DNA of 64,000 nt, from contig CAVTBR010000003.1 in the NCBI GenBank assembly GCA_963733055.1, forward strand, positions 160,001 to 224,000, given 5' to 3'. Below are positions 53,065 to 61,008 of this stretch, in pieces. Source of the stretch: Candidatus Bathyarchaeota archaeon. Its GTDB lineage: Archaea > Thermoproteota > Bathyarchaeia > 40CM-2-53-6. The notes under the pieces were generated by a model. That model had not been told where the DNA came from. It saw nothing but the letters and a program-made list of their open reading frames with translations, and made no database searches. Positions within the stretch are counted from its first letter, which is position 1. The number at the start of each line of letters is the position of its first letter. The position numbers and the translations under genes were made by a program.

Positions 53065-53259
53065 ATGGTGAATTGGCTGTTGCTTGAGGGATCTGCGAAA
53101 ATCATTCTGCCCAGCCGAGGCGACCGGAGCAAGACTGGAATACTGTACATACCCGCGGATGTTGTCAAGGATTCATTGTTCCCGTTCAGCCCTGACCAGG
53201 AAGTTGTTGTTCGAATTGACGGTAAGAAGTTAGTAATTGAAGGAGCTGCACTGTTTTGA
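53065..53259 (+). CDS. Small AbrB-like protein leading the crenactin operon
   Basis: GILYIPADVVKDSLFPF...VVVRIDGKKLVIE; stop overlaps the crenactin start. Confidence 0.65.
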   Translation: MVNWLLLEGSAKIILPSRGDRSKTGILYIPADVVKDSLFPFSPDQEVVVRIDGKKLVIEGAALF

Positions 53260-54529
53260 ATGGCGACAACTATCGAAGCCACTATACCTTCGCGATGGAC
53301 TTCGGGACCAGCGACTTCAAATTTGGTCCGATTACACTGGGCGAAAACCCGAGAATTGTGAACAATCGTGGCTATTTCCCTGACAAGAGCTCCGTCATGT
53401 ACAAGGCCTTTGAACCCACTTCCGACGTAATTGTTGGAGACGACGTGCCCCTCTACCTGCAGTCCGCCGAAGATTTGTCGAGCCGCTTAATCTACCCCAT
53501 GCGTAACGGAATGATCGACAAAGGCGACGATCAAGCGTGGCGCATGGTAAACAGTCTTACCTCCTACAGCTTAGACGAGTTCAAACCCCAACCAAACAAC
53601 GGCTTTCAAGGATACTACGTGGTCGCCTCCCTGTCCTCGGTCTCCCCCCGATACATGTACGAAAGACTGCTAGCCCAATTTCAAGAGAACAACCACGGAA
53701 AAATCAAGGCCGTCACAATCATTCCGCAACCTTTTGCGGTAGCGATTGGCCACGGAGTCACTACTTGCGTGGTCATTGAGTCAGGACACGGGAACAGTCA
53801 AGTCTGCCCAATCTCAAAATATCCTATCCGGGCGGCTCAGGTAGCGTTGAACCGAGGCGGCGGGGACGCACGAATGCTATAACTTCAGAGATTCTGAAGG
53901 ATTCTGGTTATGGCGATTTAGCAAATGAGGAGGCCGTGGTTAGGAAGGTTAAGGAGAACATCGGACTAGTCCCCGCGAATTTAGATAACGCAATCGCCGA
54001 TGCGAAGAAGTTCCCGCGAAAAGCCAGAGCGAAGTACAAAGTCCCCGGCACACGTGTCGAGATAGATCTTGAAAAGGACTCGTGGTCAAGGTTCCTGATC
54101 GGCGAGTACGTCTTCAACCCCAACCATGAGATCTTCGAGAGCTACTTTGGTCGCGGAATGCCAAGGCCCAAGGACGTCAAAATGGGCGACACGATCTTCA
54201 AGGGCATGCTCGATTTCGGAGAGGCGATAATCGCCTCCGTTGAAAGATGCCCGGTTGAACTGCAACCCATGCTCTACCGCGAAGTACTCCTCTCAGGCGG
54301 AAACTTCAGCTGGACCGTACCTCCTAAACTGCAAGACACCGCTGTCGACGCACCTACGAAAGTGCGCCTTCTGCTCCGGGACCGAGGTATCAAGAATGTT
54401 TCAGTCAAAATGACCAGCTCCCCCCAGTTCTCGGTTTGGCATGGGTGCATAATCTATGGTTTCGCTGTTCCGGAGAATTATGATTGGGATTGGCAGCGGT
54501 TGGAGGGGTGGATGAAAGTTTCAAGCTAG
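53256..54529 (+). CDS. Crenactin (archaeal actin); split by a 2-nt frameshift at about 53870
   Basis: YTFAMDFGTS..KFGPITL, LIYPMRNG, IIPQPFAVAI, ESGHGN.QVCPIS, ALNRGG; in the next frame NAITSEILKDSGY, RFLIGE, LLSGG, PQFSVWHG, EGW. Matches Pyrobaculum crenactin as I recall it along the whole length. Confidence 0.92.
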
Positions 54530-55793: not shown

Positions 55794-56726
55794 ATGAGCA
55801 CAAGCACATCGACAAGAAAAGTTGGAAAGTTAACTAATTGTCCTGAATGCGGAAGCACAAACCTTGTAGAAGATTATGATGTTGGCGAGATCAGTTGCCA
55901 TAACTGTGGCCTAGTCATAAGTGAACACTCCCTAAACACAGGGCCCGAATGGCGCGCCTTCACAAAAGAGGAAAAAGATGAACGAGGCCGCGTAGGCATC
56001 CCCACATCATTCTCCATTCACGACAAAGGATTATCAACCGTAATCGATCGTGTGAACCGGGACGCATACGGCCGACAACTGCCCCTAGCGACCAGGCTCG
56101 AAATGCTGCGCCTCAGGAAATGGCAGATACGAACCCGAGTCCACTCCTCAGCCGACAGAAACCTCGCGCAAGCAATGGCTGAACTCGACCGCTTAACCGA
56201 CATGCTCCACATACCCGCCTCCATAAAAGAACGTGCAGCAATCGTCTACCGAAAAGCCCTCGACAACGGATTAGTCAGAGGTCGTTCAATCGCAGCAATA
56301 GCTGCCGCTTCACTCTACGCCGCATGCCGAATGTCCGAAACTCCCAGAACACTCAAAGACGTATCAGCCGCTAGCAGAATCCGCAAGAAGGACGTTGCAA
56401 GATGCTACCGACTCCTCGTCCGAGAACTTGACCTCCGGATGCCCGTTGAGGATCCTGTGAAATGCATTTCGAAGATAGCTACGAAGGTCGAAATCTCGAT
56501 GCCTACTCAGCAGCGTGCTATTCGGATAATTAACGAGGCAAAGCGAAAAGGCATCGTCGCAGGCAAGGACCCGATGGGGTTGGCAGCGGCTTCGCTGTAC
56601 GTCGCATGCGTTCTCGAAGGCGAGAAAAAGACCCAGAAAGAGATAGCTGAAGTAGCTAACGTCACCGAGGTAACAGTCAGAAACCGATACAAGGGCCTGA
56701 AGGAAGCCCTCAAACTCGACATCTAG
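55794..56726 (+). CDS. tfb: Transcription initiation factor IIB
   Basis: CPECGS...CHNCG Zn ribbon, GPEWRAF, HDKGLST, RGRSI, GKDPMG, VTEVTVRNRYK. Confidence 0.97.
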   Translation: MSTSTSTRKVGKLTNCPECGSTNLVEDYDVGEISCHNCGLVISEHSLNTGPEWRAFTKEEKDERGRVGIPTSFSIHDKGLSTVIDRVNRDAYGRQLPLATRLEMLRLRKWQIRTRVHSSADRNLAQAMAELDRLTDMLHIPASIKERAAIVYRKALDNGLVRGRSIAAIAAASLYAACRMSETPRTLKDVSAASRIRKKDVARCYRLLVRELDLRMPVEDPVKCISKIATKVEISMPTQQRAIRIINEAKRKGIVAGKDPMGLAAASLYVACVLEGEKKTQKEIAEVANVTEVTVRNRYKGLKEALKLDI

Positions 56727-59492
56727 TTCGACTGACTTGGCTGCCTAGCCATCTCAACCTTTTTCTTTACTCTACCGACCAGTTCTTCCTTAGTCATTCC
56801 GAAGATTATCTTCAAACATTCTAAGACGTCCGATACTGGGTGAACGGAAACCCCTTCCTCGTCTAGTACCCGCATCTCGTCTTTCGCGGCTTGGGCGTTT
56901 GCGACTGGCAAAACCAAATCCGTGACATGAACTCTCTGAGATTTCAGAATCCCAACAACCTTCCCGGTCTGTGTCCCGTAACCGCCTAAGCCACCTACCG
57001 GCCCAACATCAAGCTTAACACCAATTGTTCCGGTCGCAACGATCGTCGGAGAGATCGGTAGTCCCGCTAACTCGGAGAGGAGAGCCAGCACCATCGCTAA
57101 CCCTGCGCTAGGTCCCGAAACTCCTTGCCCAGGTGCGCCTTCAAGTATGCTTCTGATTTGAAAGTGGACGTGTAGTCGGCTGAGGTCCACCTGGGAGTTG
57201 GCCCATAGAAGTGAGCTGACTGCCTCCGTGGCGTTCTCTGCACTCTGAAGAACTGAATCATCAGAAACTACCACCTGCCCGACAACGGCTGAAGTGGCAT
57301 TCCCAGTCACAGAGACTTGGCGTTCACTCTGTATCAGCGGTCTCACTGAACACTGAACTGTGATTACACCTCCACTGCCATCCTCGGTTGCGTATAATCC
57401 AAACGACGCTGCCCGGTGTGGGTTGGGTCAGGATTAGGGCTTCTTCCATCTCCCTTCTTTGTCTGGTCTGATTCGACTCCAAGCCCTGAATTGCTTTTTC
57501 GAAATGGTACAGGCGAATTGGATAGTTATTCTCGTTAAGCTCATCGAATGATTGAGTTGGATCTGAGCCGTCGAGTTGAAACACGTCACGAAGCCTGGCT
57601 AGGTCGGCAGAGTACTTCTGTTGCATCGCGGTTCTTTCTACTTCGTTCTTGCTCGCGCGTAACTCATATGCTGCGCTTATCTCCGATGCCCATAGTCTGT
57701 GAGCTTCCGCTATCGTTTCAGATGCGGCCCTTGGGCTTAGGATTCGTTGCATTCTGAACAGGCGGGTGATTTTGGAGGCATCGACTTCGGGATGAATGAA
57801 GCGATCGAATCTTTGTAGGTGGATCTCGACGACTTCGTTCCACTCCCGATCGTTCAAGGGCGGGTGAACGTAGTAGACGTTTGGTTCAAACCTGTCCCTC
57901 GTTGCCTGATCGATAAGGTTCTCCTTGTTGGACGCGGCGATCACGACGATTCCTTCGTCGGGTTTGATTTCGCTTAACTCAGCTTTCACTTGCGCCAAAA
58001 TCTTGTTTCCCGTTGGATCCGCTCCCCAGAAGATTGCGTCGGCCTCGTCAAGGAAAAGTATGCATGGACTTCTCTGTCTAGCTAAAGCGAATAGGTCCTT
58101 GATTCGTTTCTCCGGTTCGCCAATGTAAGCCGCTCCACTCATCAGTTCGCCACCTCTGACTTTGATGAAAGCGACTTTGTTCTCGGCAGCCGCCGCTAAC
58201 GCGAGTAGGGTTTTGCCGGTTCCGGGTGGCCCGAAGAGTAGGAACCTGCAATTCGATGCGTATCCGAGTTCCGACATCTTCCTGCTAAATGCAAGTGAAA
58301 TATGGTTCAGCACTTTATCTCTGATGTCATGGAGTCCGCCGATCTCTTTCCTTGCGACTTTGGGACTGATCAAGTATACTGCGTCAGTGATCTCTCGTGA
58401 TTTTTCCCGCTCCACATAGAACTTCATTGAATGTGCTGCTTGCGCGAAATCATCCAAGCCCACTTTGTAAATTGGTTTGGTCCACTTTGATAATGGCCCT
58501 GGCATCGAGCGTCTGATCGTCTCAAGTAGGGGCACCTCTTTGGCTCGTTTCACCTCTCGAAATACGCCGAGTATATCATTGGGTGTGATCGAACCGTGCC
58601 TTCGTAGAACCGCCTCTCGTTCTAGAACCTCAAGGATCTCCACCGACGAAATGCCTCTCCAACCTTCGGCGGCAAGCTTATCCTCAACAATTGCTAGCAG
58701 CATCTCCCTCGTCACCCCAGAGTCTAGGTCGACACGGGTGAGTCGGCGACGGATGTCTTCGCGAGTTTGCTCGTAAGAATTCGTGGCGACTATCACGAGG
58801 GTTCGTGCTTCATTCGTGGTGATCTTGTCGAGCCAACGGTTGATTTCGTCCTGCACTCTCGTGTCCTCTAGCTCAGTTCCCGTATCGCCACGAACCTTTC
58901 TCCCGAAGCTTTGGAACTCGTCGATATAGACAACGGAAGGAGTTGAAGCCGCTTGCTCCAGAAGCTTCCCTAGTTGCTTAGTGCTTCTACCGTAGTATTC
59001 AGAGAATACGTCAGATCCTTTGATTATGATAGGTGACAGGTAGATTCCGTTCTTGTGAGCCTCAAGCAGCATCTGTTTCAGCGAAACCATCGTCAGGAAC
59101 GTTTTCCCAGTTCCACTTTCGCCGGTGAGGCAAATCGCTTTGGGAAGCTCATCTTTATCGAACCATTTTCGAAGCATCGGATGCTTCAGAACGTGAAGCC
59201 TGAATGAATCTAACAGAAGGTTGTATTCCTTATCGCGTCCGATTAGTTTCTCAGCCGAGAACCTAGCCGGGGGGTACAACCTGTCTAGGCGTAATTGTAT
59301 TTTCCGAAACTTCCGCGGCGAAATCTTTGACTTCCGCCATTTCACAAACTCCCTATCCACAAGTCTGAGCGGCACATAGTTTGCCCACCGCAAGGGCGCT
59401 GCCTTCTTCCACCACACATCTTTAGAGCCAGTTTCTAGGTTGGGTTGGGAACCTGCTTCGATGTCGTCGAATTGCTCAGCCATGTTACTCAC
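56723..59492 (-). CDS. Tandem AAA+ ATPase fused to a Lon (S16) protease domain; ORFs separated by a 1-nt frameshift near 57410
   Basis: AAA1 GESGTGKT/YIDEFQ; AAA2 GPPGTGKT/FLDEAD. Removing one base gives ...PTPGASFGLYATEDGSGGVITVQCSV into the Lon domain (VTGN, SA.NA, HVHF, SGPSAG, TGTI, PVGG..K, LPVAN). Confidence 0.85.
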
Positions 59493-60378
59493 TTTCTAGG
59501 GGCTTTAGGTCGAACGCTTTTTCAAGAGTGAAACGGATCAGGTAAGCGATGATAACCGCTCCCAGCGCAAATCCTACAACGAAGAGATCCCAAAGTGAGA
59601 GGAGGTTCAGCGAGACCAGAAACATGAACCGCAAGACGAATAGAAGAATCAGTTCCCCTCCCATGATCGCCACGATTGCGACAAAGGATACTAGCAGGAA
59701 CTTGTAACCGATATCCAGCCAGAGGTACGCCTTCTCTCCGCTGTCTAACCGCTGCGCCGACCCTTCTTTGCTCGCAGCCTCACGTCGAATCCACAAGCCG
59801 CCTACTACAAAAAATTGTACGCCTAGTAGTAAGTATAGGGCCTTCACCCACAACGGGAACGCCTGACCGAAGTTGCCGATCCAACCCGCAAAACTGTCCC
59901 AGGGTGAAATCGAGGGGGCTATGGCTATCATGTTGACAGGCTTGGGGTTGAAGTAAACATTAACGTCGAGTTCGAACGATCCACCCGAAACGTAGAAACT
60001 CGTACTGTTTTCGACAGTGTTAGTTCCACCCTGTTTGACAAAGAGGTTAATCGTATAATCTGTCGCCTGACTGAACATCACTCTCACCTCATAGTCGCCT
60101 GCGGTTGCAGATTGGAGTCCGAAATTGTTCGTCGGGTATTGGCTTGGTTTGGCGAGCTGGGCGGCGGAGAGGTTGCCTTGGACAAAGGCCTGTTGTATGG
60201 CAGGGTGGTCGCTTTGAATAATCAGGGAGTCCCCGGCGTTCAGTTGCATGGCCTCGGTTCGTACCGGTGTTTGATCAGCTCGAGCGACTTGAATGCCGGC
60301 CATTAGGATGGGGAGTATGAGTATGAGCAGAAGGTACAATGCAGGCGCTAGTTTTCCATGTGACTGCACGTTGGCCAT
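59485..60378 (-). CDS. Membrane protein with extracellular beta domain and three C-terminal TM helices
   Basis: Signal peptide ending ARA, polar beta-rich domain, hydrophobic C-terminus; stop overlaps the AAA-Lon start by 8 nt. Confidence 0.8.
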   Translation of the reverse strand: MANVQSHGKLAPALYLLLILILPILMAGIQVARADQTPVRTEAMQLNAGDSLIIQSDHPAIQQAFVQGNLSAAQLAKPSQYPTNNFGLQSATAGDYEVRVMFSQATDYTINLFVKQGGTNTVENSTSFYVSGGSFELDVNVYFNPKPVNMIAIAPSISPWDSFAGWIGNFGQAFPLWVKALYLLLGVQFFVVGGLWIRREAASKEGSAQRLDSGEKAYLWLDIGYKFLLVSFVAIVAIMGGELILLFVLRFMFLVSLNLLSLWDLFVVGFALGAVIIAYLIRFTLEKAFDLKPLESE

Positions 60379-60455
60379 GCTCTCCGGGATGAAACCGGTT
60401 TTGTTCTGTCAAAGTTTGGCGTATATTAATGTTCCGAACACGGAACATTAGTGTT

Positions 60456-60665
60456 TCATGGCCGGTCTTGGTCTTCAGCTGACTCGTCCAGCTCCAAAAC
60501 AAGACTCCCAAAATAACCGCACTCTTCACACGCGTAGAGTGGCGGCAATAACCAGCCATTCAAAGACCCCCGCTGCTTAATCTTCAAGCTGCCACAGACG
60601 GGACACGCCTGAGGGACGGGGCCTGAATGTTTCAGACCCTTCATTGCATCGAAGAAAGAACTCAA
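60456..60665 (-). CDS. Small Zn-ribbon protein
   Basis: CPVCGS...GWLLPPLYACEECGYFG. Confidence 0.8.
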   Translation of the reverse strand: MSSFFDAMKGLKHSGPVPQACPVCGSLKIKQRGSLNGWLLPPLYACEECGYFGSLVLELDESAEDQDRP

Positions 60666-60687: not shown

Positions 60688-61008
60688 TCAATGGATTTCT
60701 ATTGAGGTTTCCGGAAATCCGAACTGTACGAGCAGCTTCTTGACCTTCCCGCGGTGGTCGCCCTGAAGCATTATCAATCCTTCTTTCGAGGTTCCACCGC
60801 AAGCACAGTAAGTCTTCAGTTTCGCACCGAGGTCTCCAAGATCAACGCTCTTGGAGTTTATACCTTCGATTATGGTAGTGGCTTTGCCCCATTTTCTAGT
60901 TTCGAGGCGGACCTTGACAAGCTGCTGCTCCATGCTGATAGTTCCGCAGACACAGAGATCTTTTGGAAGCCCACAAGTTGGGCATACTTCCGCCATTATT
61001 TGCGTCAA
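60688..61008 (-). CDS. sui1: Translation initiation factor aIF1 (SUI1/YciH)
   Basis: CPTCGLPKDLCVC, RKWGK, LKTYCACGGT, LQGDHR. Confidence 0.95.
   Translation of the reverse strand: MTQIMAEVCPTCGLPKDLCVCGTISMEQQLVKVRLETRKWGKATTIIEGINSKSVDLGDLGAKLKTYCACGGTSKEGLIMLQGDHRGKVKKLLVQFGFPETSIEIH

Follow-up and report, generated by a model that had tools for sequence, protein, structure and literature searches.

A tandem AAA-AAA-Lon fusion protein encoded beside a membrane protein gene in Bathyarchaeia and other Thermoproteota

Only a handful of ATP-dependent protease designs are known, and every one of them has taught much about mechanism. In Lon and FtsH the substrate is unfolded and threaded into the enzyme's own peptidase. 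Clp ATPases, which belong to another AAA+ clade, bind the separate tetradecameric ClpP, and Cdc48 ends in a free tail that docks on the proteasome, with archaeal Cdc48/VAT able to feed the 20S proteasome. In the Lon classification consulted here, the subfamilies A, B, C and BA each have one ATPase domain, and a classical double-ring AAA motor attached to a Lon chamber is absent from it (PMC9569914). Here we describe a gene pair in a stretch of 64,000 nucleotides from Candidatus Bathyarchaeota archaeon (assembly GCA_963733055.1, contig CAVTBR010000003.1, positions 160,001 to 224,000 of the forward strand; hereafter the window), in which a gene for two classical AAA modules and a Lon-type peptidase domain lies directly downstream of a gene for a membrane protein. 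The protease gene is interrupted in the window by a single extra base that leaves two open reading frames (ORFs), and the parts of the pair are as follows.

59485-60378, minus strand: gene of the membrane partner, an ORF of 297 residues with no Pfam or NCBIfam family
57324-59492, minus strand: AAA ORF of 722 residues; Pfam AAA (4.7e-50) in two stretches
56723-57346, minus strand: Lon ORF of 207 residues; Pfam Lon_C (1.6e-10) from profile position 77 onward
59154-59483, minus strand: N-terminal helical region of the protease, residues 1-110; helices 24-107 in the model, no Pfam match
58434-59153, minus strand: AAA module D1, residues 111-350; from Pfam AAA, motif translation and conservation
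57648-58433, minus strand: AAA module D2, residues 351-612; from Pfam AAA, motif translation and conservation
57429-57647, minus strand: helical linker between D2 and the peptidase, residues 613-685; helices 614-682 in the model
57410: extra base that splits the gene into the 722- and 207-residue ORFs; absent from a metagenomic contig (X1, below); read-through of 919 residues
56723-57428, minus strand: Lon-type (S16) peptidase domain, residues 686-919 and the stop; from Pfam Lon_C and alignment to 1z0b

Translation places a complete set of motifs in each module. D1 contains the Walker A motif GESGTGKT (59123-59100), the Walker B motif VVYIDEF (58934-58914), the pore loop SEYYGR, the sensor-1 sequence VATNS and an RRR triplet at residues 245-247, and D2 contains GPPGTGKT (58232-58209), ILFLDEAD (58061-58038), the pore loop GAAYIGE, the sensor-1 sequence AASNK with Asn-519, and TRDRFE with Arg-531. 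In the Lon domain, GPSAG (57115-57101) holds the catalytic Ser-792, and Lys-841 (codon 56962-56960) lies in GPVGGLGGYGTQTGK, after a GGYGTQTG insert. The first-pass annotation, made without database searches, had read here two complete classical AAA modules with Walker motifs, pore loops, sensor-1 asparagines and arginine residues, and a Lon domain with a GPSAG serine and a lysine behind an insert; translation recovered all of these, and Pfam the Lon domain as well. Its single-base correction between 57400 and 57415, said to give about 920 residues, corresponds to the omission of base 57410, which yields 919 codons. The overlap it saw between the protease and membrane genes stands in part: an overlap of 8 bases arises solely with an upstream GTG start, whereas from the ATG at 59483, which is the start in the homologs and in the deposited gene call (P0001, 719 residues), the protease gene begins one base after the TAA of the membrane partner gene. 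The N-terminal region is basic and aromatic and carries a WW...LR...P.L motif common to the family, with Trp-25 and Arg-32 at least 90% conserved. A hydropathy scan of the ATPase part found no transmembrane segment. An AlphaFold2 model of the close relative P0002, built with 76 sequences (predicted local distance difference test score, pLDDT, 80; predicted template modelling score 0.55), has N-terminal helices at 24-107, D1 at about 116-345, D2 at about 369-610, a helical linker at 614-682 and an α/β peptidase domain at 692-895.

Conservation was counted in a family alignment of 76 sequences. The D1 Walker A lysine is present in 76/76, the Walker B aspartate in 75/76 and glutamate in 73/76, and the RRR triplet in 73-74/76. 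For D2, the Walker A lysine, the Walker B Asp-Glu pair, the sensor-1 Asn-519 and Arg-531 are each found in 76/76. The catalytic serine is invariant (76/76) and the catalytic lysine is kept in 75/76, with one arginine. Judged by these motifs, both rings look active, and so does the peptidase. HMMER aligns GPSAG with the GDSAS serine of the A. fulgidus LonB protease domain (1z0b, 6.2e-8), and the lysine after GGLGGYGTQTG with the catalytic lysine of the same enzyme across a 6-residue insert, bearing out the earlier assignment of this lysine to the Lon dyad. The residue before the serine is proline in 73/76 family members. In the Lon classification, proline precedes the serine in A-type Lon centres and aspartate in B-type centres (PMC9569914). 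The family therefore combines an A-type motif with a peptidase domain whose closest relative is LonB, and adds an insert of its own.

The fusion is not a peculiarity of the window. Among the 120 best clusters for the 722-residue query ORF, PF00004 and PF05362 occur together in a single protein of about 815-945 residues in 114; the remaining six, which lack PF05362, comprise the gene call of the window itself and five truncated proteins. When 1.84 billion representatives were searched, about 19 further full-length relatives came up (25-37% identity, 858-1120 residues), and both AAA and Lon_C were found by Pfam in 21/21 aligned divergent representatives. The homologs are therefore fused, as the first reading of the window had supposed, and not two separate genes. 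A second large clade, with proteins of about 900-920 residues, emerged from a profile search with the distant members; its sequences are labelled Bathyarchaeota/Bathyarchaeia, Brockarchaeota, Marsarchaeota, Thermoprotei, Thermoproteota and Nitrososphaerota and annotated only as 'AAA family ATPase', 'SpoVK/Ycf46/Vps4' or 'transitional ER ATPase', although inspection by eye found PF05362 on all of the at least 120 matches listed. In species-representative genomes the window's clade and the second clade account for 45 and 67 loci, respectively, and almost every locus of the former is titled Bathyarchaeia. One further locus from the scan for the window's clade was set aside as an unrelated AAA gene, and 80 loci from a genome scan with the distant alignment were not used, the pattern being a generic Walker A and the loci ordinary AAA genes. 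In Bathyarchaeia and other Thermoproteota the family has many members, and it comprises at least two deep clades.

Within the class, the window's Lon piece was matched at E ≤ 1e-15 in 50 of 301 sampled genomes, including 37 of the 43 genomes of the window's family and 10 of the 12 of its genus. Of the matches, 41 reach 55% identity or more, and 33 of these fall within open frames of 849-1004 residues; the frame in the window's genome has 234. Four genomes (G152, G239, G272 and G063) have two matches each: one, at 55-70% identity, belongs to the window's clade, and the other, at 38-42%, to the second. The two clades can thus coexist as paralogs in Bathyarchaeia. A family member also occurs on a contig titled Candidatus Nealsonbacteria (L200:3615-7694) beside RuvA and a Mur ligase, which identifies the gene as a bacterial one of the candidate phyla radiation (CPR). 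Some members are longer. P0136 (1120 residues) has an extra C-terminal domain of about 220 residues with an HExxH motif, possibly a second, metallopeptidase-like module, and a D1 Walker A that departs from the strict pattern. P0386 and P0149 (1261 residues) are longer by about 350 residues, and P0386 holds an intein, as indicated by intein and LAGLIDADG Pfam domains (PF14890, PF14528).

The base at 57410 falls between the codons of Gly-691 and Ala-692 and places the two ORFs in different frames. Six-frame translation gives ...LTQPTPG in one frame and ASFGLYATEDGSGG... in the next, with the start of the Lon_C match lying in the frame of the AAA ORF, and in close relatives ...LTQPTPGASFGLYATEDG... 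is continuous in one frame. When the base is omitted, the gene has 919 codons and a stop with no internal stop, and 884 of the 919 residues are identical to P0002 without gaps (96%). A search of sequencing runs found a single holder, a soil-metagenome run (X1) with 0.12 of the words, in which a 281-base contig over 57203-57484 lacks base 57410 and otherwise has 0 differences; runs X2 and X3 gave only short matches of <95% to conserved motifs and were disregarded. A consensus indel error is the most likely cause of the extra base, and the window's split gene should be read as one.

It could be argued that the window's copy is a true pseudogene, the extra base being real in the cells and the strain having lost the fused protease. 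We consider this improbable, because the X1 contig is identical over 281 bases and lacks the base, because the gene has no other lesion and its read-through is free of stops, and because other frames are broken in the same assembly (3 contigs, 2.88 Mb, 96% complete), which fits consensus indel errors. An actin-like gene on the plus strand, 3.5 kb away, breaks near 53873, leaving ORFs 53256-53882 and 53936-54529 in different frames, its orthologs in L002 and L036 being a single ORF of 425 residues, and the third Cdc48 paralog (G000:C2:532930-535063) appears as two pieces that overlap (profile positions 2-118 and 100-731) and contains a TGA. Two truncated relatives also come from very long contigs (940,828 and 487,307 bases), which likewise fits such errors. 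Counting against a consensus error, and for a pseudogene, the large essential genes ileS, rpoB and aEF-2 are all intact in the assembly, and indel errors are therefore not frequent in it; X1 may, moreover, be the sample from which the window was assembled. The 95%-identical P0003 (702 residues) loses its frame as well, a few codons downstream, after PGASF, and there are further truncated clusters (P0011, P0089, P0098 and P0101).

The breaks of the window and of P0003 differ but fall within about 10 bases of each other; one may speculate that the site is error-prone for the sequencing chemistry. The same closeness could be taken for a programmed frameshift at 57410 that gives either a protease-less AAA-AAA protein or the full fusion. 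This was rejected as barely credible, since the break positions differ, no shared slippery sequence is conserved, the 114 clusters are plainly in frame and the otherwise identical X1 contig is in frame too.

No NCBIfam model reaches its cut-off for the protease. The CDC48 model (TIGR01243) scores 158.8 bits against a cut-off of 802.65, with residues 99-560 collinear with profile positions 198-639, and when the modules are taken alone D1 matches the D1 part of this profile at 44.7 bits, its best NCBIfam match, and D2 matches the D2 part at 117.9 bits. The FtsH model reaches 114.6 bits against a cut-off of 600 and matches D2 only, as do the PAN models; the Lon models, with cut-offs of 516-723, stop at 33-48 bits and align to the peptidase part alone. 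The best solved structures by sequence are VAT, Rix7, AFG2 and p97 (VAT 2.6e-49). Foldseek finds a fold match to p97/Cdc48/VAT/Rix7 at E about 5e-28 over about 630 columns, with low TM-scores because no solved chain has the whole architecture. A maximum-likelihood tree was computed from 55 AAA modules of 19 family members, 9 Cdc48 proteins (two from the window's genome) and one single-AAA protein, leaving out FtsH, PAN and Lon references and eight distant representatives. The family D1 modules form one clade (support 100) and the D2 modules another (support 86). The internal order of the two clades agrees, suggesting a single ancient fusion. The D2 clade adjoins the D1 and D2 modules of Cdc48, and both family clades lie outside the sampled Cdc48 D1 and D2. 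This supports a lineage distinct from Cdc48, and an origin within Cdc48 is not supported by the tree, in which Cdc48 supplies the references. Of the relationships to Cdc48, PAN, FtsH and LonB that the first-pass annotation had proposed to place by phylogeny, the tree accordingly addresses that to Cdc48 and supports separation from the Cdc48 modules sampled.

The likeness to Cdc48/VAT/p97 lies in the tandem classical AAA modules in the same order, the pore-loop aromatics and the arginine fingers; the differences are that no CDC48 N-domain was detected in the Pfam lists of the family and that a C-terminal Lon peptidase stands where Cdc48 has its free tail. With LonA and LonB (MEROPS S16.005) the family shares an unfoldase and a Ser-Lys peptidase in one polypeptide, the best solved relative of its peptidase being the A. 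fulgidus LonB protease domain, and it is presumably membrane-associated, as LonB is. However, Lon has one AAA+ module of the HCLR clade, whereas the family has two classical modules (PF00004), and LonB carries a membrane insert within its AAA+ module, whereas the ATPase of the family has none and its membrane element is a separate gene. The two also differ in the residue before the serine, which is aspartate in LonB. FtsH with HflK/HflC acts at the membrane, as is presumed for the family, and resembles it in that a classical-clade AAA is fused to a peptidase and a separate membrane partner has its bulk outside the cytoplasm. In contrast to the family, FtsH has one AAA module, an M41 zinc metalloprotease and transmembrane helices of its own; the family has no transmembrane helix and no M41 family in its Pfam lists, and its partner is Ig-like and not of the SPFH type. 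ClpAP and ClpCP offer two stacked ATPase rings on a serine peptidase chamber, such rings being predicted for the family, but the family peptidase is covalently fused and Lon-like in fold, and its symmetry would be sixfold like that of the rings.

The membrane partner is the second constant element of the locus. Its AlphaFold2 model (pLDDT 80) consists of a helix at 11-28, a nine-strand β-sandwich at 39-144, an amphipathic helix at 159-172 and three long helices at 176-206, 213-253 and 262-289, in agreement with the signal helix, outer domain and three transmembrane segments first read in this protein of 297 residues. The N-terminal helix is probably a signal or anchor and the modelled sandwich appears Ig-like; in the expected topology the sandwich would lie outside, with the loop 207-212 and the tail in the cytoplasm. 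In an alignment of 27 partner orthologs, a C-terminal FDLKP-x3-[DE] motif is almost invariant and the loop residues are conserved. The partner has no match in Pfam, NCBIfam or PADLOC, its model gives 0 Foldseek matches at E ≤ 0.001 and generic Ig-like sandwiches only beyond, and a protein atlas holds only two Bathyarchaeota hypothetical clusters for it (0.84 and 0.80).

A homolog of the partner lies directly upstream of the protease gene in 43/43 loci of the window's clade that have upstream DNA; of the 46 loci scanned, three have no partner, two of them being cut at the gene and one not being a family member. The partner gene stops 0-90 bases before the protease start. In the second clade the partner has 229-304 residues, a signal or anchor helix, an outer domain rich in N-glycosylation sites and two helices around a conserved YFKSK-x-EE-x-S loop, and matches to its hidden Markov model (HMM) lie directly upstream in 62 of the 67 loci, the other five having no upstream DNA. 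The gene is on the same strand in 46 of these 62 loci and divergent in 16. On the CPR contig, a membrane protein of 459 residues (signal, large outer domain, two helices) ends 6 bases before the protease gene, and the pair seems to have crossed domains together. The linkage of the membrane gene that the first-pass annotation proposed is thus borne out by synteny in the window's clade and by a like-built partner in 62/62 loci of the second. Since the adjacency persists across deep divergence, gene inversion and a domain-crossing transfer, there is strong evidence for a functional pair. A scan of 23 family sequences for hydrophobic segments found no clear N-terminal membrane fusion (P0152 has one marginal segment), and a complex prediction with protease residues 1-350 and partner residues 160-297 scored 0.25, the mark being 0.32, and counts neither for nor against a contact.

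The genes around the pair in the window are as follows.

60688-61008, minus strand: aIF1/SUI1 gene; Pfam SUI1/aIF1 (2.2e-19)
60456-60665, minus strand: Zn-ribbon-like ORF of 69 residues; weak Zn-ribbon match below the Pfam cut-off
55794-56726, plus strand, convergent to the protease gene: TFB gene, whose stop overlaps the protease stop by 4 bases

The upstream genes for a Zn-ribbon protein and aIF1, noted from the start on the same strand, were thus recovered, the former by a weak match. The adjacency of partner and protease persists where this aIF1, Zn-ribbon and TFB context is absent. Within the window's clade, only 16/43 loci have a Zn-ribbon gene in the flank, and in 3 of the 16 it is inverted. 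Zn-ribbon, aIF1 and TFB are neighbours and not components.

Gene adjacency does not fix the role of the partner among anchor, adaptor, sensor and substrate. The membrane protein could be a dedicated substrate or sensor, which would sense an envelope signal and have its cytoplasmic tail or loop degraded, as in a switch of the anti-sigma/RseA type. Its extracytoplasmic domain is compatible with this, and the exposed, strongly conserved tail FDLKP-x3-[DE] of the window's clade might serve as a degron. Divergence is much faster in the partner, with 31-61% identity to the protein of the window, than in the protease (59-81%), as expected for a sensing surface, and adjacency survives inversion of the partner gene in the 16 divergent loci. 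However, the second-clade partner lacks a cytoplasmic tail, having no more than a loop of about 15 residues that joins its final two helices, and no transcription factor or other output is consistently linked, TFB and aIF1 being neighbours in part of one clade. We regard this role as unlikely. Far less probable is that the pair is a mobile defence or conflict system, in which an AAA ATPase and a protease effector would act like IetAS and not in housekeeping. The IetA models of PADLOC match D2 at 110 bits and the copy in a CPR bacterium implies that the pair moved between domains, but the IetA match is no better than those of Cdc48 or PAN, so that it reflects generic AAA similarity, and the partner has no PADLOC match. 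The core neighbourhood (TFB, aIF1 and a GTPase) is conserved across genera, and the protease is present in most genomes of the window's family (37/43) and genus (10/12).

We instead favour, with a probability of roughly 0.6, a three-tier hexameric unfoldase-protease that works with the membrane partner. The domain architecture and the partner linkage are close to certain; hexamer formation, ATP-dependent proteolysis, membrane tethering and the substrates we infer from sequence features. The 919-residue protein would form a hexamer with a stacked D1 ring, D2 ring and Lon peptidase chamber. Its aromatic pore loops would grip the substrate, and ATP hydrolysis would unfold it and pull it through both rings, from which the unfolded chain could pass straight into the attached Ser-Lys chamber. 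This would be the scheme of Lon and FtsH driven by a double motor of the Cdc48/ClpA style. The partner, with its β-sandwich facing outward, may hold the protease at the membrane or hand over substrates, the contact possibly being made between its short cytoplasmic loop and tail and the basic and aromatic N-terminal helices of the protease. The outcome would be a membrane-associated protease for quality control or for responding to a signal.

Several observations weigh against this reading. The D1 sensor-1 asparagine is kept in only 53/76 family members and the D2 pore-loop aromatic varies, and one ring may therefore be weaker in some members. The offset from serine to lysine in the family alignment is 47 in 36 sequences, 49 in 34, 48 in 4, 44 in 1 and 55 in 1. 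It thus lies at 47-49 in 74/76, with mostly 46-48 residues in between, and departs from the spacing of LonA and LonB, which is given as exactly 42 residues, or an offset of 43, in a 2022 paper on Lon subfamilies (PMC9569914). With HMMER, the partner HMM of the window's clade shows no homology at the second-clade loci, and neither partner HMM matches the CPR neighbour; hhalign joins the two partner families weakly (66.8% probability, E 5.3e-5, 77 outer-domain columns). No fusion of partner and protease was found among the longer proteins searched with the partner alignment of the window's clade, which is weak evidence. On the other side, the homologs are fused, the membrane gene is linked to them, the lysine aligns to the Lon dyad and no earlier description was found, and these four results together support the self-contained unfoldase-protease with a membrane partner that was proposed from the first reading of the window.

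The protease complement of the window's genome provides the setting. It has three ordinary Cdc48 genes, one of them the frame-broken paralog described above. The only other Lon_C protein (G000:C3:658469-660859; L119/L048) has about 797 residues, a GPAGTGKT Walker A, a long helical insert and GDSAS...GGANEK, and is LonB-like, although its 150 bits fall far below the cut-off of 516; inspection by eye of 677 of its residues showed no transmembrane stretch. A canonical membrane-anchored LonB was not found with PF05362 in this 96%-complete genome.

A full-text literature search, which did not extend to MEROPS itself or to subscription-only papers, found no description of the AAA-AAA-Lon architecture, and an unnoticed mention is possible. 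Together with the NCBIfam result, this agrees with the earlier impression that the fusion is not an already described family. More tentatively, and with somewhat less confidence than we place in the hexamer itself, the family may represent a so far uncharacterised type of energy-dependent protease, to be set alongside Lon, FtsH, Clp, HslUV and the proteasome. A Cdc48-like double motor and a Lon chamber would here form a three-tier hexamer docked on a dedicated membrane receptor. Its task might be the extraction and degradation of proteins of the membrane or envelope in archaea without FtsH and, in the case of this genome, without a canonical membrane LonB. Such an enzyme could be a one-polypeptide counterpart of Cdc48 extraction and degradation of the type found in endoplasmic-reticulum-associated degradation, and the pair would be an old one that split into deep clades and crossed into CPR bacteria.

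The family occurs widely among Bathyarchaeia, Brockarchaeota and other Thermoproteota, groups with abundant populations in soils, sediments and hot springs, and the membrane protein gene is upstream wherever upstream DNA exists. The label 'AAA family ATPase' on hundreds of archaeal genes appears to hide a predicted protease. If active, the enzyme would show how two rings are coupled to a covalently attached sixfold peptidase, would provide a compact model of membrane-protein extraction coupled to degradation, and would fill a gap in archaeal membrane proteostasis.

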